This document shows positions 46,442-56,783 of a stretch of 64,000 nt of DNA, one piece after another; position 1 is the first letter of the stretch, and each line of letters starts with the position of its first letter. Both the position numbers and the translations under genes were made by a program. This stretch comes from Escherichia coli. GTDB lineage: Bacteria; Pseudomonadota; Gammaproteobacteria; Enterobacterales; Enterobacteriaceae. The DNA is taken from NCBI RefSeq assembly GCF_045037415.1, contig NZ_CP173438.1. The stretch is one strand, 5' to 3'. A model generated the notes under the pieces. The model ran no database searches, had not been told where the DNA came from, and saw only the letters and a list, made by a program, of their open reading frames with translations.

Positions 46442-46692
46442 TGAAAGAATACCGCTATTCCGGCCCGGCCAGCGGCGTCACGCTGTCGGACGGAACCGAA
46501 ATCCTGCTCTGGCCGGGGAAGACGGTTTCCCTGCCGGAGGAGCATGACTACGTGAAGGTACTGGTGGCGCTGAAACATCTGACGCCGGTACCTGAAGAGA
46601 CTAAACCCGCCGGCACACCGGCTGTGCAGTCACCAAAGCGCAGAAGCAGCAGTGACAGCGAAGTGAAAACGGAGGACACCCATGGCAGCTAA
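46438..46692 (+). CDS. Small structural protein (Mu gp38-like)
   Basis: 84 aa; overlaps neighbours by 4 and 11 nt. Confidence 0.35.
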   Translation: MMKEYRYSGPASGVTLSDGTEILLWPGKTVSLPEEHDYVKVLVALKHLTPVPEETKPAGTPAVQSPKRRSSSDSEVKTEDTHGS

Positions 46693-48109
46693 CTATCTGC
46701 ATGGTCCCGAAACCATTGAGGTGGAAAACGGTGCCCGCCCGGTTAAAACGGTGAAATCTGCCGTTATTGGCCTGATTGGTACCGCCCCGATGGGGGATGT
46801 CAATACGCTGGTACAGTGCCTGTCTGAGAAAGACGCAGCGGCATTTGGCAGCCAGTTCACCGGCTTTACCATTCCGCAGGCGCTGGATGCGATTTATGAC
46901 CATGGTGCAGGCACCGTTCTGGTCATTAACGTCCTCGACCCGGCGAAACATAAAACGGCGATCGAGGATGAGGTGGTTACCTTTGACAAATCGACAGGGC
47001 AGGCCAGACTGGCGCATCCGGTTGTCGCTAATGTGGTGGTGAAAAACAGTGAAGGCAGCACCACCCACACGGCGAACACGGACTACCGTGTTGATGCGCA
47101 GGCGGGTGTGCTCACGAACCTGGGCAAGGCTATTGAGGCCGGTGGCAGCGTGAAGGTGAGCTATGAGTACGCGGACCCGTCGAAGGTGACTGCGGCGGAC
47201 ATCATCGGCGGGGTGAACAGCGCCGGAAACCGAACCGGCATGAAGCTGCTTAACGACAGCTTCAACCTGTACGGCTATTTCGCCAAAATTCTGATTGCGC
47301 CGGTGTTCTGCACCCAGAAGAGTGTCGCAGTTGAGCTTATCGCCATGGCAGAGAAGCTGGGCGCGGTAACCTACATTGATGCGCCTGTCGGTACCACCTT
47401 TGCACAGGCTCTGGCAGGTCGTGGCCCGGAAGGCACCATCAACTTCAATACCAGCTCCGACCGCGTCCGTCTGTGCTATCCGCATGTGAAGGTATATGAC
47501 CCGGTGACAAACACAGAGCGTCTGGAGCCGCTCAGCCAGCGTGCAGCAGGTCTGCGTGCCAGAGTCGATCTGGACAAGGGCTACTGGTGGTCATCCTCCA
47601 ATCAGGAGATTCTGGGGATCACCGGCGTGGAGCGCCAGCTGTCCGCGATGATTGATGACCCGCAGAGTGAGGTGAACCTGCTTAACGAACAGGGGATCAC
47701 CACGGTATTCAGCAGTTACGGCAGCGGCCTTCGTCTGTGGGGTAACCGGACGGCAGCATGGCCAACGGTCACCCATATGCGTAACTTTGAGAACGTTCGC
47801 CGCACCGGTGATGTGATCAACGAGTCCATTCGTTATTTCAGCCAGCAGTACATCGACATGCCGATTACTCAGGCGCTGATTGATGCACTGACGGAGTCGG
47901 TCAACGCCTACGGTCGCAAAATGACTGGTGATGGTGCGGTACTGGGCTTCCGTTGCTGGTTTGATCCGGCCCGCAATCCGGAGACGGAGCTGGCCGCCGG
48001 GCACCTGTTGCTGAGCTACAAATATACGCCACCACCGCCGCTGGAGCGACTGACGTTTGAGACTGAGATCACCTCGGAATACCTGTTAACCCTGAAAGGG
48101 GGCAACTGA
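46682..48109 (+). CDS. Tail sheath protein
   Basis: 475 aa; followed by tube gene; contractile-tail module order. Confidence 0.7.
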   Translation: MAANYLHGPETIEVENGARPVKTVKSAVIGLIGTAPMGDVNTLVQCLSEKDAAAFGSQFTGFTIPQALDAIYDHGAGTVLVINVLDPAKHKTAIEDEVVTFDKSTGQARLAHPVVANVVVKNSEGSTTHTANTDYRVDAQAGVLTNLGKAIEAGGSVKVSYEYADPSKVTAADIIGGVNSAGNRTGMKLLNDSFNLYGYFAKILIAPVFCTQKSVAVELIAMAEKLGAVTYIDAPVGTTFAQALAGRGPEGTINFNTSSDRVRLCYPHVKVYDPVTNTERLEPLSQRAAGLRARVDLDKGYWWSSSNQEILGITGVERQLSAMIDDPQSEVNLLNEQGITTVFSSYGSGLRLWGNRTAAWPTVTHMRNFENVRRTGDVINESIRYFSQQYIDMPITQALIDALTESVNAYGRKMTGDGAVLGFRCWFDPARNPETELAAGHLLLSYKYTPPPPLERLTFETEITSEYLLTLKGGN

Positions 48110-48630
48110 TGTCAAAGATTGAGATAAACCGCATCACGAATGCCAACATCTATCTGGATGGTACTAACCTGCTGGGACGGGCTGAGGAAGTTAAACTCCC
48201 CGATGTCTCCATGATTATGCAGGAACACAAGGCGCTGGGGATGGTGGGTAAGGTGGAACTCCCGGCTGGTTTTGACAAACTGGAAGGCGAAATCAAATGG
48301 AACAGCTTTTACCGCGATGCGATGCTGTCTGCCGCGAACCCGTACAGGTCGCTGGCACTGCAGTGTCGTTCCAGCGTCCAGCGCTACAGCTCGCAGGGGC
48401 TGATTGACGAAATCCCGCTGGTCACCTTCCTGACGATTATGTTCAAGAAGAACCCGCTGGGGACGTTCAAACAGCACGAGAACGCCGAGTTCTCCAGTAG
48501 CTTCACCTGCACGTATATCAGACAGGTACTGGATGGTGAAGAGCTGCTGCAACTGGACTATCTGGCCAACATCTTCCGGGTCGGCGGTGTTGATCAACTG
48601 ACTGACTACCGTATCAATATCGGGGGCTGA
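48109..48630 (+). CDS. Tail tube protein
   Basis: 173 aa; ATGA overlap with sheath stop. Confidence 0.6.
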   Translation: MSKIEINRITNANIYLDGTNLLGRAEEVKLPDVSMIMQEHKALGMVGKVELPAGFDKLEGEIKWNSFYRDAMLSAANPYRSLALQCRSSVQRYSSQGLIDEIPLVTFLTIMFKKNPLGTFKQHENAEFSSSFTCTYIRQVLDGEELLQLDYLANIFRVGGVDQLTDYRINIGG

Positions 48631-48632
48631 CG

Positions 48633-48914
48633 GTGAGTGTTGAACTGACGGATAAAGGAGGACGATGTGCGGCACTGGGCATGTCAAATGGTACGTGGTT
48701 TACCCTCCTTGATATTCCGGGGGTGGAAACCCTTTTTAATACCCGTAAAACCAATGACCCGATTGACTGCACACGTTCAAAGGCCCGCAAACTGGCGGAT
48801 TTGATTGAAGCATGGGAGCCTCCCGACCACTGGTTCTCCGGCATCGGCAAATCTGAGGGAAAGACGCTTCTCATCGCTTTCCTGCGTAACTGCAAGGGGT
48901 TTCGCACTTGCTGA
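48633..48914 (+). CDS. Hypothetical small protein between tube and chaperone
   Basis: ORF only; possible internal ATG start after SD aaggagga. Confidence 0.3.
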   Translation: MSVELTDKGGRCAALGMSNGTWFTLLDIPGVETLFNTRKTNDPIDCTRSKARKLADLIEAWEPPDHWFSGIGKSEGKTLLIAFLRNCKGFRTC

Positions 48915-49011
48915 CATCACAGGGGCTCCGGCCCCTTCTTCTTAATCTCCTTTAATATCCGTCACGCGCTTCTCCCGACATACTGCCCTGAACTTACACA
49001 GGAGCACAATC

Positions 49012-49347
49012 ATGTCACAGACCCCATCCGATACTTTTAAATTGTCTTATCCCTTCACCACTGCTGCAGGCACCAGAATTGAGCTGGTTGAACTGAAACG
49101 CCTGACGGTAAAAGACCTGAAGCAGGTGCGCAAAATCAGCAAAAACCCGGCAGACTGGGACGAACCGCTGATTGCCCGCAGTACTGGTCTTCTCCCGGAG
49201 GATCTCGACAATATGGATCTGGCTGATTACCTGCAGTTACAGAAACGATTTCAGCTCATCACGGGGATGGGTGAGAGCAACCAGGGCGCTGACGCAGGCG
49301 CAGGGGCTGCTGGCGAGATGGTTCCGGTTTCAGCCGGGGGAGATTGA
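49012..49347 (+). CDS. Tail assembly chaperone (putative)
   Basis: 111 aa; immediately upstream of tape measure; overlapping second-frame ORF 49172..49429 with acidic C-terminus. Confidence 0.45.
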   Translation: MSQTPSDTFKLSYPFTTAAGTRIELVELKRLTVKDLKQVRKISKNPADWDEPLIARSTGLLPEDLDNMDLADYLQLQKRFQLITGMGESNQGADAGAGAAGEMVPVSAGGD

Positions 49348-49504
49348 TGCCCTCGATACTGACGATCTGGAGATGTGGCTGGAGCAGGCTGAAGAGCAAA
49401 TCAAAAGCGAGTACGGCGACAAATCATAGTACAGACAGCCGCCAGTAGCGGCTGTTCTGCGTTATCCCCTCACGTCTTTTCACCTTCCCCGGAGGTTAAC
49501 CACT

Positions 49505-52456
49505 ATGTCGGGACAGTTTTCAGTCGGCGTTGTTATCGGCGGGATGATTGGCAGCACATTCCGTTCTGCAATGAGCGGTACCCGCCGTGCGCTTGATTCC
49601 CTGAGCGATACCTCACGCCGCCTGCAGGAACGTCAGAACGCTTTAACCCGTGCAACAGAACGTTATGGTCAACTGGGTTCTTCCCGGATGCAGCATCTCA
49701 ACAGCGAGCTGCTGCGGGTAAGCCGCACCATGGAGCAAATTGAGCGCCAGCAGCGCCGTCTGTCAGCGGCATCCGCTACCAGTGATGCGCTGAAAGCTAA
49801 CCGCATGGCGCTGTATGGTCAGGGGATTGAAGCGTATGGCATGGCACAGACTGTTTATCATACGGTTTCCCCTGCCGTTCAGCAGTCCATGTCTTTTCAG
49901 GACAAAATGATTGATATGTCGATCACCGCAAAATATGACAATAAAACGCGGGATGCACTTGCCGGACAGATAAAAGGCTGGGCGCTTAAATACAATCAGT
50001 ATCAGGATGAGCTGCAGGAGGCGATGGGTTCACTCATCAGCGACAATATTGATAATGTGTCAGATATCGGTTTTCTGATGCCGGATATTGCCCGCGCGGC
50101 AACGGCAACACGCACGTCTGCTCAGGACTGGGCAAAAGTGGCCGCAGTCTGGCAAAACTCCCTGAAAGGCGCGGCCAGAGATTTTGGTGCCGTTCAGAAT
50201 ATTATGGCTTATGCCGGTGACCAGGGGTCATTTGAAATCCCGGATCAGGTCAAGTGGATGCAGTCCCTGGCCCCAATGATGGCGGGTATTGCCAGTGGAA
50301 AAGAGGCTGTTGCTGAAATCGGGGCCAGTCTCCAGATAGCAAAAATCGGTGCAGGTTCCACCGACGAAGCAGCCAATAATTTTAAAAACTTTCTTACCAA
50401 AATTTTTGCCCGCGATACTCAGAAACAGTTTGCTGATCTGGGTATTGATTTGCAGGGATCTATTGCGAGTTATAAAGCTGCGGGGATCTCTCCGATTGAA
50501 GGGATGTTGAGTGTTATAGAACGTTACCTCAATGCCAAAAGCCCCGAAGCGCTGGCCGGCTTCAAATCAGCCATGAAAATAAAGAATGATACGGCAAGAG
50601 ATGAGGCACTTCAGGCTCTGGCGAAAAACTTTGGTCTGGGCGATATGTTCGCGGATATGCAGGTCATGGCATTTATCCGCCCGATGCTGGCCAACATGGA
50701 CAGATATCGAGAGATCCGTGCCGGTGCTCTCAGGGCTGCGGATAACGATTTGCTTGCCAGTGCTTATGATCAGCGGCTGAAATCTCCCCTTGAAGCCACT
50801 AAAACACTTATGGTCAGCAGTCGCGATCTGGCAATTACGCTGGGCGATCAATTAGCTCCATCTTTTATTTCTCTGACTCAGGACTTGCTCCCACTCATTC
50901 AGGGGACAAAACACTGGGTGGCGACTCACCCGCAATTTGTCAGTGGGGCTTTTAAGCTCATCAGTGCGCTCCTTGCGATTAAGATAGCGACTGTTGGTCT
51001 CAAACTGGGGCTGAATCTCCTTATTTCCCCCTTTGTGAACGTCTGGAAAACTGCTGTTTTACTCCGGACCAACTGGCATCGACTGACTACCGCACTCGGA
51101 GAAGGTGGCAAATTACGCTGGCTTGTCACTGGATTCAGCCGACTGACCAGCGGAGGACTGAAACTCAGCAAAGTTCTGGCGGGCAGCCTCGTTCGCGGTT
51201 TTATGAGCGCTGCACGTGCCGTTCTCTGGATTGGGCGAGCGCTGATGATGAATCCCATCGGTCTCGTTATCACCGCTGTCGCGGCAGCAGCTTACCTTAT
51301 CTACCGCAACTGGGGGGCAGTCAGTGGCTGGTTTAAACAGCGCTGGGCTGACATTCAGGAAGCCTTTAACGGCGGTATCGCGGGAACTGGTAAGCTGCTG
51401 ATTAACTGGTCGCCGGCAGGCCTGCTCTATAAAGCCTTTGCGGCTGCGCTGAAATATTTCGGCGTTACTCTGCCGGCAAAGTTCACCGACTTCGGTGGCC
51501 ATCTTATCGACGGTTTGATTAACGGTATCAAAAACAAATGGGGGTCGCTCAAATCCAGTGTAACCGGAATGGGTGACAGCATCAGTAGCTGGTTTAAACA
51601 ATGCTGGGCTGACATTCAGGAAGCCTTTAACGGCGGTATCGCGGGAACTGGTAAGCTGCTGATTAACTGGTCGCCGGCAGGTCTGCTCTATAAAGCCTTT
51701 GCAGCTGCGCTGAAATATCTTGGTGTTGATCTGCCGGCAAAGTTTACCGACTTCGGTGGCCATCTTGTCGATGGTCTGATTAACGGTATCAAAAACAAAT
51801 GGGAGTCGCTCAAATCCAGTGTAACCGGAATGGGCGACAGCATCAGTGGCTGGTTCAGCGAAAAGCTGGGCATTCATTCGCCGAGCCGCGTGTTTATGGG
51901 CTTTGGTGACAATATCGCGCAGGGGGCCGCCATTGGCCTGCAGCGGACCACTCCGCTTGCAGCTCTGGCCGGGCAGCGAATGGCCAGTGAACTGCTCCCC
52001 AGAATGCCCGTGAGCATTCAGGGGCCAGAAATACGGGATAACACTTCAGGTGTTCGCTTCAGTATGCCGTTGCCCGATATCAATGGGTTTATGTCGTCTG
52101 CTAAAAATGCGATCGGAGCCGTAATCAATAGTTTGTCTTCCATGCCCGCTATTCCGCTCTCCACCCGGGCATCGATTTTACCAGGGCAACGTCTGGCAAA
52201 TGAGATGACACCGGATGTTCCCCGTATCCCCTCGCCTGAAATCCTGGCTGCCGGATATTCAGGCCGTGGTGCAGCTGCAACCGGCGGTGGAACGTCTGGT
52301 GGTATCCAGGTCAGCTTTAATCCTCAGTTTTTCCTCAATGGCAGGGAAACCACAGCGCCTGCAGGACTGACTGGTGCCCTGAATATGAGTCTGCATGAGC
52401 TGGAAAAAATGCTGGAGCGTCTGCTGGCTCAGAAACAACGTAAGGAGTACCGCTGA
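49505..52456 (+). CDS. Tail tape measure protein
   Basis: 983 aa; largely helical, internal repeats; located between chaperone and baseplate genes. Confidence 0.8.
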   Translation: MSGQFSVGVVIGGMIGSTFRSAMSGTRRALDSLSDTSRRLQERQNALTRATERYGQLGSSRMQHLNSELLRVSRTMEQIERQQRRLSAASATSDALKANRMALYGQGIEAYGMAQTVYHTVSPAVQQSMSFQDKMIDMSITAKYDNKTRDALAGQIKGWALKYNQYQDELQEAMGSLISDNIDNVSDIGFLMPDIARAATATRTSAQDWAKVAAVWQNSLKGAARDFGAVQNIMAYAGDQGSFEIPDQVKWMQSLAPMMAGIASGKEAVAEIGASLQIAKIGAGSTDEAANNFKNFLTKIFARDTQKQFADLGIDLQGSIASYKAAGISPIEGMLSVIERYLNAKSPEALAGFKSAMKIKNDTARDEALQALAKNFGLGDMFADMQVMAFIRPMLANMDRYREIRAGALRAADNDLLASAYDQRLKSPLEATKTLMVSSRDLAITLGDQLAPSFISLTQDLLPLIQGTKHWVATHPQFVSGAFKLISALLAIKIATVGLKLGLNLLISPFVNVWKTAVLLRTNWHRLTTALGEGGKLRWLVTGFSRLTSGGLKLSKVLAGSLVRGFMSAARAVLWIGRALMMNPIGLVITAVAAAAYLIYRNWGAVSGWFKQRWADIQEAFNGGIAGTGKLLINWSPAGLLYKAFAAALKYFGVTLPAKFTDFGGHLIDGLINGIKNKWGSLKSSVTGMGDSISSWFKQCWADIQEAFNGGIAGTGKLLINWSPAGLLYKAFAAALKYLGVDLPAKFTDFGGHLVDGLINGIKNKWESLKSSVTGMGDSISGWFSEKLGIHSPSRVFMGFGDNIAQGAAIGLQRTTPLAALAGQRMASELLPRMPVSIQGPEIRDNTSGVRFSMPLPDINGFMSSAKNAIGAVINSLSSMPAIPLSTRASILPGQRLANEMTPDVPRIPSPEILAAGYSGRGAAATGGGTSGGIQVSFNPQFFLNGRETTAPAGLTGALNMSLHELEKMLERLLAQKQRKEYR
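51328..51849 (+). repeat. Near-perfect tandem duplication (2 x 261 bp) inside tape measure gene
   Basis: Unit starting ctggtttaaacagcgctgggctgacattcaggaagcc at 51328 recurs at 51589; encodes SWFKQxWADIQEAFNGGIAGTGKLLINWSPAGLLYKAFAAALKY... twice. Confidence 0.85.
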
Positions 52457-53340
52457 TGTTTGCCGTACTGGGTGATATTGAGTTTGAGCTGATTACCTAC
52501 TGGGACGGCTTCGAGGCCACGTTCGGCGTCGATTATGCGGAGCATGCCCGCATCGGGGGTAAGCCTGGTCTGCAGTTCGTCGGCGACAGGCTGGACGAAA
52601 TCCAGATAACTCTGGTTTTCCATCAGCATTATTGTGTACCCGATGTGGAGCTGGCGAGACTGCGAACAGCCATGAAAGCCCATCAGGCACTGGCGCTGGT
52701 CTTCGGCAACGGTGACTATCGCGGCTGGTTCGTGATCACCGATGTGACTGCAACCAGCGAGCAGACTGACAGTACCGGCAACGTGCTGGCTGTCAGTGCC
52801 ACCGTGTCTCTCCGGGAATACACCGGTGACCCGAAAAATCCTCTGCAACCACCGGCAATACGCACGAAGCTCCCGGGTGTCGGGGCGGTCTCCGGTGCCA
52901 TACCTTCACCTTCAGGGGTGGCGCAGTTCATCCGCAACGGCGTCAACTATGCGAAACAGGCGCAGTCTGTACTCCAGACCACTATCAGCGCCGTTCGGGT
53001 GACACAGAAAATGAAGGATAACCCCGTTGTCGCACTGACCCGTGTGCCGGGGCTGATGAGCGGACTGGGTAATATCTCCGGGGCTCTGGGGAAAAGTGTT
53101 CCGGCGTTTAACGCACTCTCTGAATCCATGCCCGATGCCATCAGTCTGGCCAGAACAGCCAGCGAAGCAGCCACGTATGTACAGCAGGCACAGTCTGCGC
53201 TGAGTGGTGTGGACAAAAGAAATATTGCAGGTGCTCTGGATACCGTTTCCGGGCAGCTTAACGCCGTCGGCACAGCATTCAACCGCATGTCTCCGGGATT
53301 AAGTGCAATGGCCGCCAGAATACTGACGAGGAGTGTGTGA
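52456..53340 (+). CDS. Tail/baseplate protein following tape measure (Mu N-like position)
   Basis: 294 aa; ATGA overlap with TMP stop. Confidence 0.4.
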   Translation: MFAVLGDIEFELITYWDGFEATFGVDYAEHARIGGKPGLQFVGDRLDEIQITLVFHQHYCVPDVELARLRTAMKAHQALALVFGNGDYRGWFVITDVTATSEQTDSTGNVLAVSATVSLREYTGDPKNPLQPPAIRTKLPGVGAVSGAIPSPSGVAQFIRNGVNYAKQAQSVLQTTISAVRVTQKMKDNPVVALTRVPGLMSGLGNISGALGKSVPAFNALSESMPDAISLARTASEAATYVQQAQSALSGVDKRNIAGALDTVSGQLNAVGTAFNRMSPGLSAMAARILTRSV

Positions 53341-53552
53341 TGTTTCTTGAACATGTTACCCGTGACGGAGAGCGCTGGGATTCGCTGGCATGGCAGTACT
53401 ACGGTGACCCGCTGGGCTATCCCCGGATTATTGCCGCCAATCCGCACGTGGCCATCACGCCGGTGCTGCCCTCCGGGCTGTTGTTACTGATCCCGGTGAT
53501 TGAGGCTGAAGAAGCCCGTACAGAAGAGGATATTGCCCCATGGCTGAGATAA
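53337..53552 (+). CDS. Tail protein X-like small protein
   Basis: 71 aa; size and position match gpX-like proteins upstream of hub gene. Confidence 0.4.
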   Translation: MMFLEHVTRDGERWDSLAWQYYGDPLGYPRIIAANPHVAITPVLPSGLLLLIPVIEAEEARTEEDIAPWLR

Positions 53553-54694
53553 ACAGCACTGCGCAAGTCACATCAGCGTTAACCGGCGTCAGCGATGTGC
53601 TGACACCGGTGTTCACTCTGTGGTATCTGCAGAAAAACATCACCTCTGATATCGCGCCTTATGTCACCCGTGTGACCTGGAGCGATAACATCAAAAATGA
53701 GTCCGATACCATTGAGGTGGAGCTGGACGACACCGATGGCCGCTGGCTGGATAAATGGTATCCGGGCAAGGGTGACACGCTGACGCTGAAAATGGGCTAT
53801 CAGGGCGAGAAGCTGCTGTCCTGCGGTACGTTCTCTATAGACGAGATCGAAGTGAGTTCGCCCGCTTCCGTTGTTTCTATCCGTGGGGTGGCCACCTCGG
53901 TTAACAGTGCCCTGCGGACTAAAACCAGTCGTGGTTTTGAGAACACCACGCTGGCAGCTGTTGCGGGGCGGATTGCCAGAAAGCACCGGCTGAAACTGGT
54001 GGGCAGCATTGAGTCCATCAGAATCGACCGGGTGACCCAGTATGCTGAAACCGACGTGGGTTTTCTGCGCCGGCTGGCCAGCGAGTATGGTTATGCAGTG
54101 AAAGTGGTCAGTGACCAGCTGATTTTTTCTCATCTGGCCACACTGCGCAGTCAGGAGCCGGTCAGGCAGTTAAAACCGCAGGATGTGGCCCGCTTTTCCC
54201 TGCGTGACACCATCAACCGGGTCTATAAATCTGCAAAGGTAAAACACCAGAAAAGCAGCAGTAAAAAACTGATCGTCTACGAAGCTGATGGTGGTACCCG
54301 TGAAAGCGACAAAAAGCTCAAAGGTGGTAAGGTTACCAGCGCTGACTCACTTAAAGTTAACAGCCGCGTCAGCGACCCGGACAGTGCCCGGATTAAAGCG
54401 GATTCAGCACTGGCCAGACATAACGAATACCAGCAGAACGGCTCCCTGACGCTGACGGGAACACCTCAACTGACAGCAGGCAACAAAATTGAACTGGTGA
54501 GTTTTGGGCAGTTATCCGGGCCATGGCTCATAACCACTGCCCGCCATGCGTTTGACCGTAACAGCGGCTACACCACAGAGCTGGAAGTGGCACGGGGGCC
54601 AGTCACAAGAGGGAAAAAACAAAAAACTCAGAAACTCACGGTTTATCACCCGGATGGCAGTACATCGACGGTGATTAAGGAGAAGAAAAAATGA
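53540..54694 (+). CDS. Baseplate hub protein (Mu P / P2 gpD-like)
   Basis: 384 aa; position and size. Confidence 0.55.
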   Translation: MAEINSTAQVTSALTGVSDVLTPVFTLWYLQKNITSDIAPYVTRVTWSDNIKNESDTIEVELDDTDGRWLDKWYPGKGDTLTLKMGYQGEKLLSCGTFSIDEIEVSSPASVVSIRGVATSVNSALRTKTSRGFENTTLAAVAGRIARKHRLKLVGSIESIRIDRVTQYAETDVGFLRRLASEYGYAVKVVSDQLIFSHLATLRSQEPVRQLKPQDVARFSLRDTINRVYKSAKVKHQKSSSKKLIVYEADGGTRESDKKLKGGKVTSADSLKVNSRVSDPDSARIKADSALARHNEYQQNGSLTLTGTPQLTAGNKIELVSFGQLSGPWLITTARHAFDRNSGYTTELEVARGPVTRGKKQKTQKLTVYHPDGSTSTVIKEKKK

Positions 54695-55287
54695 CTGGTG
54701 TCACTCGTCAGGTCGGTACGGTCAGTGCCGTTGATGCCGACAGGGTTCAGGCCCGCGTTCGTCTGCCTGAATGCGATAACCTGCGCACAAACTGGCTTAA
54801 CGTGCTGCAGCGCAATACCCAGGATAACAAAGATTACTGGCTCCCTGACGTGGGGGAGCAGGTTGAGGTGCTGCTCGATGCCAACGGCGAGGATGGTGTT
54901 ATTCTGGGCGCGGTGTATTCAGACGTCGATAAACCACCGTTCAGTGACAAAAATATCCGGGGAACCCGGTTTGCTGATGGTGCAGAGTACAGCTACAACC
55001 GGAAGACGCACACTCTGATCATCCGGGGCGGCATTGAGCATATTGTCATTGAGTGTGGTGCTGATGTGGTATTGAAAACACAGAAAGCCACGATTGACGC
55101 ACCGGAAACCGAACTTACCGGAGATCTGCGTGTCAGGGGTAAGCTGATTTACGAAGGAGGCATGGCGGGTTCTGGTGGTGAAGGTGTTACCGCGACCATC
55201 CATGGCAATATCGAGATTAAAGGGAATGTCCATGCCACGGGCAGTATGTTGTCTGATGGCGAAAACTCCAGCCACCACTCCCACTGA
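54691..55287 (+). CDS. Baseplate spike protein (gpV-like)
   Basis: 198 aa; Gly-rich C-terminal region; position between hub and W-like gene. Confidence 0.55.
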   Translation: MTGVTRQVGTVSAVDADRVQARVRLPECDNLRTNWLNVLQRNTQDNKDYWLPDVGEQVEVLLDANGEDGVILGAVYSDVDKPPFSDKNIRGTRFADGAEYSYNRKTHTLIIRGGIEHIVIECGADVVLKTQKATIDAPETELTGDLRVRGKLIYEGGMAGSGGEGVTATIHGNIEIKGNVHATGSMLSDGENSSHHSH

Positions 55288-55341
55288 GCTTTTTAAACGC
55301 CTTTAATATCAGCGTTCCCGCACGGGGGCAATACTGCCCCC

Positions 55342-55689
55342 ATGAAAACAACCTCAGTATTCTGGCAACCAGCCCTGCAGGCTCCCGGCGAAATTGTCCG
55401 GGGGCTGGATGATATCCGGCAGGCGATTCAAATTATCCTGCGGACTCCCCGCGGCAGCGACCCGCATCGCCCGGAGTTCGGCAGCAATCTGCATCTTTAT
55501 ATCGACTGGCCTGTAGACCGGGCCATTCCGCATGTGGTGCGCGAATCCGTCGATGCCATCCGGCGCTGGGAGCCCCGCTGCCAGCTTATGTCAGTTAAAC
55601 CCGCCGTCGACGGCGAACATCTTACGCTCCGGGTGAGCTGGAAAGGCTCAGACGGACAGACCCGGACTCAGGAGCTGCTATGGCGCTGA
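55342..55689 (+). CDS. Baseplate wedge protein (gpW/gp25-like)
   Basis: 115 aa; precedes J-like gene. Confidence 0.5.
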   Translation: MKTTSVFWQPALQAPGEIVRGLDDIRQAIQIILRTPRGSDPHRPEFGSNLHLYIDWPVDRAIPHVVRESVDAIRRWEPRCQLMSVKPAVDGEHLTLRVSWKGSDGQTRTQELLWR

Positions 55690-56783
55690 CAGAACCCGAT
55701 TTTATTGAACGCGATGCCGACAAAATCACGGCAGAAATGATTGCGAAGTATGAAGCGGATACCGGCAAAACGCTGTACCCGGCACAGGCAGAACGTCTGC
55801 TGATTGATCTGTGGGCCTATCGCGAAATGCTGGTCAGGGTTGCGGTACAGGAGGCAGCAAAGCAGAATCTGGTCGCCTTTGCCCGTGAGCCGATGATTGA
55901 TTACCTCGGTGAACTGGTCGGTGTATACCGTCTTGCCGCGCAGCCTGCCACCACCACGCTCCAGTTCTCCGTAGATGAGGCACTGGCCATTGATGTGCTG
56001 ATCCCGGCAGGCACCCGCGTCAGCGCTTCCGACAGCGTTATTTTTGCCACCGATACAGATGTGGTACTGAAGGCCGGATTGCTGCTGGTCAATGTCACGG
56101 CCACCTGTACCGAACCCGGTACCGCTGGTAACGGCTGGCAACCTGCGCAGGTCAGTCAGTTACTCGATGAGATTGATAACGTTAACCTGCTGGTGAGCAA
56201 TCTGATGGCCAGTTCCGGCGGTTCAGAACAGGAAGACGATGACAGGCTCCGGGAGCGTATCAGGCTGGCCCCGGAGTCATTCACCAATGCCGGAAGCCGT
56301 GGCGCATACCGCTTTCATGCCATGCAGGCCCATCCCAACATTGTCGATGTTGCTGTGCTTTCCCCGGTTCCCGGGACCGTAGATCTGTATCCGCTGCTCA
56401 GTACCGGTCTGCCGGACGGCGGTGTTCTCACGCTGGTAGAGAGTTTCTGCTCTGATGAGAAAGTCAGGCCACTCACTGATACAGTGCGGGCTAAAACACC
56501 AGTGAAGGTGGATTACACCATTGAAGCCAGGATTACGATCTATCGTGATCAGGATGCCAGGTCTGTAAAAGATGCCGCTAACAGCGCCATACAGAACTGG
56601 GTGGCATCACGTGCCGCCACGCTGGGGCGCGATATTGTCCCCAGCCAGATTATCAGTGCATTGTCCGTTTCCGGGGTGTACCAGGTTGAACTGGTGACAC
56701 CGGCACTGCGGGTGGTGGCAGAAAACGAATGGGCAAACTGTACGGCAATCACTCTTAACATGACTGGAGTGTCTGATGACTGA
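55680..56783 (+). CDS. Baseplate J-like protein
   Basis: 367 aa; canonical W-J-I order. Confidence 0.65.
   Translation: MALTEPDFIERDADKITAEMIAKYEADTGKTLYPAQAERLLIDLWAYREMLVRVAVQEAAKQNLVAFAREPMIDYLGELVGVYRLAAQPATTTLQFSVDEALAIDVLIPAGTRVSASDSVIFATDTDVVLKAGLLLVNVTATCTEPGTAGNGWQPAQVSQLLDEIDNVNLLVSNLMASSGGSEQEDDDRLRERIRLAPESFTNAGSRGAYRFHAMQAHPNIVDVAVLSPVPGTVDLYPLLSTGLPDGGVLTLVESFCSDEKVRPLTDTVRAKTPVKVDYTIEARITIYRDQDARSVKDAANSAIQNWVASRAATLGRDIVPSQIISALSVSGVYQVELVTPALRVVAENEWANCTAITLNMTGVSDD

Follow-up and report, generated by a model that had tools for sequence, protein, structure and literature searches.

The chaperone locus and its overlapping reading frame

We analysed a 64-kb stretch of Escherichia coli DNA (contig NZ_CP173438.1; hereafter the window) that carries a phage tail assembly chaperone gene encoding a protein of 111 amino acids (49012-49347, plus strand). 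The protein is a homologue of P2 gpE, matching the Pfam family PF10109 (Phage_TAC_7, the P2 gpE / Mu gp41 family, titled 'Phage tail assembly chaperone proteins, E, or 41 or 14') at E=5.5e-21 with 74.8 bits against a cut-off of 25; a search of NCBIfam for the chaperone locus gave no match. The gene sits between the tube and tape measure genes, as in the lambda G/GT paradigm. The DNA of the locus is 100% identical to that of Escherichia phage PhiKM (classified Bcepmuvirus), and 640 of 5426 complete E. coli genomes carry a 701-base region in nearly unchanged form. Judged from its sequence, the chaperone gene belongs to a BcepMu-like prophage with P2-type tail genes.

An earlier note on this DNA had reported that the chaperone open reading frame (ORF) is overlapped by an ORF in the next frame reaching 27 codons beyond the chaperone stop, that this second ORF has an acidic tail and that its geometry implies a +1 (or -2) change of frame and not a -1. 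Our reading of the sequence bears out all three points: the +1 frame is open from 49172 to a TAG at 49427-49429, 27 codons beyond the end of the chaperone ORF at 49347, and its tail is acidic (EIDALDTDDLEMWLEQAEEQIKSEYGDKS). The chaperone ORF ends in GCC GGG GGA GAT TGA, its last base being 49347, and a G5 run lies just before the stop, as the note had said (CCGGGGGAG at 49334-49342, with the G5 at 49336-49340). Its suggestion of a frameshift in the tail chaperone gene holds in part: programmed entry into the +1 frame has strong comparative support as well as homology to P2 gpE/E+E' behind it, whereas the G5 run fails as the slip site, for reasons given below. By our rough estimate the chance of one open +1 frame of 58 codons is ~6%, so that the open frame alone is unremarkable and it is conservation that shows the frame to be real.

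Conservation and translation of the +1 frame

Viral contigs were scanned twice, which yielded 160 loci, with 85 loci in the first set and 69 resolvable loci in the second. When the frame was placed by the extension motif ...LLARWFRFQPSEID...W...IK, the extension proved to be +1 to the chaperone at 84 of the 85 loci of the first set and at 68 of the 69 of the second. The two-frame layout is conserved in ~120 distinct related loci from Enterobacteria, Burkholderia, Pseudomonas and Ralstonia, and in all 109 distinct loci parsed the +1 frame runs from the proposed shift site into the extension without a stop. A tblastn search with the conceptual fusion of chaperone and extension matched both parts in two frames in records of Klebsiella, Salmonella, Ralstonia, Pseudomonas and Pasteurella, with identities down to 39-51% (lowest 39%).

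Substitutions in 53 distinct enteric sequences were compared in the two frames. Across the +1 codons at 49310-49348 the synonymous fraction was 0.82-1.00 at 12 of the 13 variable codons, the exception being a G/S codon at 49337-49339 (0.19), while over the same interval the synonymous fraction of the chaperone frame was ~0. At the level of sequence, the +1 frame is thus translated and under purifying selection.

Both parts also occur as a natural in-frame fusion of 127 amino acids in one GC-rich contig (IMGVR_UViG_3300002920_000058; our loci L079 and L108, which are the same). This fusion differs from the +1-layout relatives L128 and L132 by an indel located ~20 nt after UUU_C, and the phage would make the long form only, unless a frame shift yields the short one. 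As to initiation, ATG, GTG and TTG are all lacking 5' of the conserved domain in 29 of 113 distinct +1 ORFs, and the family shares no start position, indicating that separate initiation cannot be the family's mechanism. We conclude that a programmed change into the +1 frame very probably occurs at the chaperone gene.

The change of frame is confined to codons around a near-invariant UUU_C

Stop codons of relatives bound the position of the shift on both sides. The +1 frame is closed three codons 5' of a conserved Phe in 11 distinct loci (e.g. L110 stop-PTPF, L005 stop-RPDF and L007 stop-PRCF), and the earliest chaperone-frame stops lie 6-7 codons 3' of this Phe (L131 FRGMVS-stop, L110 FRSMVDN-stop). 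Read as bounds, these stops confine the shift to ~10 codons around the conserved Phe. At this position TTT followed by C was found in all 109 distinct loci that were parsed automatically and in 8 more by eye, i.e. in 117 of ~120; the UUU share of Phe codons in long flanking ORFs is 50% in low-GC, 35% in mid-GC and 21% in high-GC loci. In the tightest-bounded lineages UUU_C is the sole codon able to re-pair. In the BcepMu group the substitution pattern switches at the UUU codon itself: GCN is the +1 codon that follows, its third base being any of the four (57 synonymous vs 13 non-synonymous pairs), and the overlapping chaperone-frame codon varies among C, D, G, L, R and S.

The site takes the form CGA_UUU_CAG in enterics, CGA_UUU_CUG in Ralstonia and UCC, GCC, GUG or UGU followed by UUU_CGC or UUU_CGG in GC-rich hosts. 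In the window the proposed +1 shift cassette CGA_UUU_CAG lies at 49246-49254 (plus strand), with UUU at 49249-49251 as the slip codon, C at 49252 and a CGA that would occupy the ribosomal exit (E) site. The rare CGA stands directly before UUU in 50 of 51 distinct enteric-type loci, compared with a background of 7.5% of Arg codons in flanking ORFs. We consider UUU_C at 49249-49252, ~90 bases 5' of the G5 run, the probable shift site.

Other candidates in this interval were rejected. A shift 5' of UUU would have just three codons to use in lineages with a nearby +1 stop, and these are neither slippery nor conserved; GGG_NUG_G, CCC_N, AAA_A and CUU_G were each found in some lineages only and do not serve as general sites. 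No canonical X_XXY_YYZ -1 heptamer is present in the shift zone of the window, whereas Pasteurella and P2 relatives have one. Nor is the site in the window a prfB-type cassette (an SD-like sequence ~3 nt upstream and a stop after a CUU-type slip codon), as no Shine-Dalgarno (SD)-like sequence precedes UUU and the codon in the aminoacyl (A) site is CAG and not a stop. Some GC-rich relatives have GAGGUG immediately 5' of UUU, which is not general.

Several observations weigh against this placement. The loci are related by descent, and counts of distinct sequences overstate their independence. Three distinct loci of a Pseudomonas-type clade (L155/L156, L157 and L171) carry GUG_UUG_CGG and not GUG_UUU_CGG, and this clade keeps the +1 layout and an intact extension, though +1 re-pairing is not possible on UUG. 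The window belongs to the enteric group, in which the chaperone frame is constrained for ~5 codons beyond UUU and clear constraint on the +1 frame begins at ~49264-49274, and the L079 fusion keeps the zero-frame reading (FRAMLDTG) for 8 residues beyond Phe. A stimulatory element was looked for in the window and not found: UUU is not preceded by an SD-like sequence, CAG in the A site is a common codon, and the predicted RNA fold downstream (49253-49345) is no better than that of shuffled sequence (z = -0.6 to -1.6). The enteric pattern would be expected with a short form that depends on those residues and a +1 linker under loose constraint. A shift located a few codons further 3' would also account for it, and a downstream site is kept as the main rival.

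Two further features were noted in this region. Many neighbours of the UUG-clade loci have, ~8 codons 3', GGA_GGA_GAC_CUU_G, in which CUU comes after an SD-like sequence much as in the prfB cassette; it is not conserved elsewhere. A hairpin at 49254-49278 was considered as a stimulator and set aside, as it is lost in KP12-like sequences (judged by eye only).

Weighing of the alternatives

The downstream site would place entry into the +1 frame within 49253-49281, for instance at GGG_AUG_G (49264-49270), which forms part of GGG_AUG_GGU (49264-49272, plus strand), a sequence that contains the conserved +1-frame UGG and lies near the enteric switch in selection. There tRNA-Gly would slip +1 from GGG to GGA, or a -2 event like that of Mu would take place on a CGGGG run, with ...FQLITG(G)WVRATR... 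as the product. Zero-frame constraint in enterics does last to ~49263, where an ACN Thr codon is synonymous in the zero frame and R/L/Q in +1, and clear +1-frame constraint starts at ~49271; enteric loci show next to no variation in GGG and the +1 UGG, yet GGG is absent from L004 (AGC), L067 (GGA_U), L005, L007 and all GC-rich relatives. The -1 heptamer of Pasteurella maps to the same position, the L079 fusion stays in the zero-frame reading up to the GGG position, and Mu, a member of the same Pfam family, has a -2 shift on a G-run that is annotated as verified; however, -2 re-pairing from GGG lands on CGG, CUG or CAG (CGG in the window). Lineages with a zero-frame stop 6-7 codons after Phe offer no re-pairing site but UUU_C, and a site at GGG gives no reason why UUU_C should be near-universal or the rare CGA conserved. 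All in all we regard a shift in this interval as unlikely. Far less credible still is the G5 run put forward in the earlier note (49336-49340, plus strand), where a +1 or -2 slip on GCC_GGG_GGA_GAU_UGA (49333-49347) would give ...VPVSAG(G)EIDALD..., with ...MVPVSAG(G)EIDALDTDDLEMWLEQAEEQIK as the junction in the long product. Although tRNA-Gly could re-pair in the window sequence (GGG to GGG at +1 or GGA to GGG at -2), a stop codon is close by and phage Mu makes a -2 shift on a G-run, the run itself is not conserved and reads CCGAGTGAG, CCTGGGGAG or CCGGGTGAG in relatives. It is also 3' of the chaperone stop in many of them: KP12-like and many other loci end the chaperone frame 21 nt 5' of the run (GTG GTT TAG), others end it in GCC GAG TGA, and a common E. 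coli allele ends it at the equivalent of 49282, well 5' of the run. This allele (L025, L027; P0012), found in 914 contigs, has TAG for CAG at the equivalent of 49282-49284, a change that is synonymous in +1, and encodes a short form of 90 amino acids. Finally, ~20 +1 codons 5' of the run, from ~49271, are under strong purifying selection, so ribosomes must enter the +1 frame well 5' of 49336.

The remaining alternatives dispense with a change of frame. The +1 ORF might be an independent small gene with a start of its own (GTG 49271 or TTG 49172) that encodes a free gpE'-like protein, and annotation has treated it in this way: in NZ_OZ039818 the NCBI annotation pipeline (PGAP) called a 'GpE family phage tail protein' of 52 amino acids that starts at the counterpart of GTG 49271, and the GenBank record of BcepMu has the +1 ORF as a gene of its own, gp42. 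The sequence GGGGAUGG 5' of the GTG is weakly SD-like, but the GTG is replaced by GCA, GCG, AUA or CUA in relatives. With more than a quarter of the distinct +1 ORFs devoid of a start before the conserved domain, as counted above, with no start position kept, with a natural in-frame fusion on record and with the P2 homologue given in GenBank as a frameshift product (gpE+E', -1), we hold a separate gene to be very improbable. That the overlap is a functionless leftover in the prophage of the window, a decayed element or a chance open frame, is hardly to be believed. The adjacent tape measure gene is marked incomplete by RefSeq in some genomes and many copies of the locus are prophages of unknown activity; against this stand purifying selection on the +1 frame across lineages, identity of the locus to the isolated phage PhiKM and the nearly unchanged region in 640 of 5426 complete E. 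coli genomes.

Database proteins of 138 amino acids that join the two frames (P0001-P0009) were considered as evidence of fusion and rejected. The P0004 contigs (Logan; the one checked) carry other 1-nt deletions in homopolymers, and given that the source assemblies drop bases in other homopolymers too, proteins joined exactly at the G5 run are sequencing errors. Public assemblies (L174-L181, Logan contigs) repeatedly lose one base in the G5, C4 and T5 runs (window positions 48719, 49336 and 49487), and such losses at the locus create false fused or broken genes in protein databases.

Proposed mechanism at UUU_C

We infer the slip at UUU_C, its efficiency and the binding partners of the two forms as follows. 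The majority of ribosomes would stay in the zero frame and make the short form of 111 amino acids. In a minority, tRNA-Phe (anticodon GAA) in the peptidyl (P) site on UUU (49249-49251) would re-pair with UUC (49250-49252) in the +1 direction; a -2 slip is impossible at the site of the window, because UUU would land on GAU. Decoding would resume at AGC (49253) in the +1 frame and end at the TAG at 49427-49429, the predicted long product being composed of 80 chaperone residues and 58 more (138 in all), i.e. a short linker and then a gpE'-like helical domain. It would be the counterpart of P2 gpE+E' and lambda gpGT. The rare CGA may enhance the slip through weak pairing in the E site, an idea that comes from work on the release factor 2 (RF2) site. 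By analogy with lambda, the common N-terminal part may bind the tape measure protein, the extension may recruit the tube protein and a low rate of shifting would set the ratio of the short and long forms. PMC5009743 summarises these roles for lambda gpG/gpGT: binding of the tape measure, recruitment of the tube and a fixed ratio of the two proteins. The tetranucleotide itself has precedents: in bacteria UUU_Ynn reportedly undergoes +1 shifting with particular ease and is the YopN-TyeA site, and UCC_UUU_CGU in influenza PA-X and UUU_CGN in amalgaviruses are +1 sites (PMC5009743; PMC5052127).

The extension domain and the predicted long product

The putative +1-frame extension after the shift comprises 58 codons and the TAG (49253-49429, plus strand) and is made up of a linker, SSSRGWVRATRALTQAQG, and a gpE'-like domain; three-frame translations, purifying selection on the +1 frame and conservation in the ~120 loci argue for it. 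The domain (Phage_P2_GpE; LARWFRFQPGEIDALDTDDLEMWLEQAEEQIKS; 49310-49408, plus strand) matches PF06528 at profile positions 4-36 of 37, with 16-18 bits where the cut-off is 23 and E=0.0015-0.008, i.e. below the cut-off. The homologue from Pasteurella scored 52 bits against the same profile, and 14 of 37 family members matched it at E<=0.01. BLASTP aligned the extension with residues 107-133 of P2 E+E' at E=0.03, and PGAP labels an identical ORF in one genome 'GpE family phage tail protein'. PF10109, the family of the short form, was matched by all 37 conceptual long forms of the chaperone family. Structure prediction from these 37 sequences gave one confident fold for the product of 138 amino acids (predicted local distance difference test, pLDDT, 88; predicted template modelling score, pTM, 0.78). 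No solved structure was found by sequence, and comparison of the confident model with folds in the PDB gave no counterpart, with E > 2 throughout.

Gene order and prophage context

The contractile-tail module, with the gene order of P2, occupies 46682-56783 of the window. It opens with the sheath gene (46682-48109), followed by the gene of the P2 FII-like tail tube protein (48109-48630, plus strand; PF04985, E=2.9e-53), an ORF of 93 amino acids (48633-48914), the chaperone gene and the tape measure gene (49505-52456, plus strand; PF10145, E=1.3e-20), which is annotated as tape measure in PhiKM and RefSeq; homologues of gpU, gpX and gpD and baseplate genes lie 3' of it. The tape measure protein is the presumed client of the chaperone, and the tube protein the presumed binding partner of the extension domain, on the model of lambda gpGT (PMC5009743).

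The ORF of 93 amino acids has a weak match to DUF7739 (E=3.5e-5, under the cut-off) and is followed by a GC-rich hairpin with a T-rich tail at 48921-48936; it is missing from the Salmonella relative L004, in which the chaperone gene comes directly after the tube gene. Between the extension stop and the start of the tape measure gene lies an inverted repeat, CAGCCGC-CAGTA-GCGGCTG (49436-49455), which was not called by the terminator scan. The tape measure gene itself contains a 261-bp tandem duplication at 51321-51855 (2.0 copies, 93% identical) that repeats ~87 amino acids and whose copy number could alter tail length. The record of PhiKM has a sequencing gap at this duplication, and RefSeq marks the tape measure gene as incomplete in some genomes.

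Annotation of the locus and implications

Frameshifting in tail chaperone genes is textbook knowledge, with the -1, -2 and +1 directions all on record, and a frameshift at a chaperone locus is therefore to be expected. None of the GenBank or RefSeq records examined has a frameshift annotated at this locus: the record of PhiKM gives 'tail protein E' only, RefSeq has 'phage tail assembly protein', with a 'GpE family phage tail protein' beginning at GTG 49271 given separately in one case, and in phiE255 and newer Burkholderia phages separate genes are annotated. A search of the literature turned up no paper on this +1 site in BcepMu-like phages, which is no proof that none exists. The novelty lies in a specific +1 signal that obeys a simple sequence rule and is conserved in ~120 distinct loci from several bacterial orders.

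We see an even chance that the bare UUU_C is a programmed and maintained bacterial +1 signal, with UUU_CGN as its form in GC-rich hosts and CGA_UUU_CAG, in which CGA would act as an E-site enhancer, as its form in enterics, and that it replaces the -1 heptamer at the P2 gpE/E' junction in a large BcepMu-like clade. If this is true, the type phage BcepMu is mis-annotated and about 1 in 8 complete E. coli genomes carries an unannotated recoded gene. The UUU_C rule would let annotators join ORFs that have been left separate or unnamed in BcepMu, phiE255, PhiKM and the 640 of 5426 E. coli genomes. With its -1 heptamer, +1 UUU_C, in-frame fusion and UUG variants the family is also a natural test series, which could show how the direction and efficiency of a shift evolve at a constant ratio of proteins.

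Comparison with known systems

The closest parallel in gene order is P2 gpE/gpE+E', where sheath, tube, chaperone, tape measure, U, X and D follow one another as in the window (the FETUD tail operon). The N-terminal parts of the two proteins belong to the same Pfam family, PF10109, and the extension domains are homologous (PF06528-like); in P2 an annotated -1 site, GGU_UUU_UUG, joins gpE to the domain that aligns with the extension of the window. The two proteins have little sequence identity (18% overall), the extension by itself reaching E=0.03, and the shift in the window would be +1 at a UUU_C tetranucleotide, unlike the -1 shift at an X_XXY_YYZ heptamer in P2. In a Pasteurella relative the homologous domain is in the -1 frame and is reached via G_GGA_AAG, which is identical to the lambda heptamer. 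The frame changes at the same domain junction in the window, P2 and Pasteurella, within 2-7 aligned residues (~2-3 for P2).

Mu gp41 is of the same Pfam family, its long form is likewise in the +1 frame, and the prophage of the window has a Mu-like head and a transposable-phage backbone. In Mu, however, a -2 shift (annotated as verified, PMID 15469818) takes place on the G-run CGG_GGG_CGA, much nearer the 3' end of gp41, and the Mu extension neither matches PF06528 nor shows evident similarity to that of the window. A Mu-type -2 shift does not suit the window, in which +1 coding begins 5' of the sole G5 run and a -2 slip leads from UUU to GAU and from GGG at 49264 to CGG. An equivalence between the Phe (UUC) of Mu DDF and Phe80 of the window was considered and withdrawn, as Mu DDF aligns with ADY of the window. 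With lambda gpG/gpGT the locus shares the arrangement of two N-terminally identical chaperones, in a fixed ratio in lambda, encoded just 5' of the tape measure gene (PMC5009743). Lambda differs in being a siphovirus with a non-contractile tail and in shifting -1 at G_GGA_AAG, and no sequence similarity to it was detected.

The orthologous locus of the type phage, BcepMu gp41/gp42/gp43 (L089; GenBank AY539836, 24602-25363), has the same +1 layout and a UCC_UUU_CGC site. Its record takes the +1 ORF, gp42, for a separate lambda-G-like gene that slips into 'gp43' and does not link gp41 to gp42. The gp43 frame has a low-complexity, GC-rich translation and overlaps the start of the tape measure gene; it looks spurious, and passage from gp41 to gp42 via UCC_UUU_CGC looks like the real event.

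With the UUU_Y sites of E. coli (UUU_Ynn), YopN-TyeA, PA-X and amalgaviruses the proposed site shares the tetranucleotide and the proposed re-pairing of tRNA-Phe from UUU to UUC. In the window a zero-frame UUU is followed by a pyrimidine (CGA_UUU_CAG, 49246-49254), and GC-rich relatives carry exactly UCC_UUU_CGC or GUG_UUU_CGG. The known cases are in unrelated genes, and they differ from the window in the neighbouring codons: the next codon in the window is CAG and not a rare CGN, and its conserved rare codon, CGA, precedes UUU instead of following it. Through the UUU_CGN form, the bacterial case is connected with the motif of eukaryotic RNA viruses (influenza PA-X and amalgaviruses).

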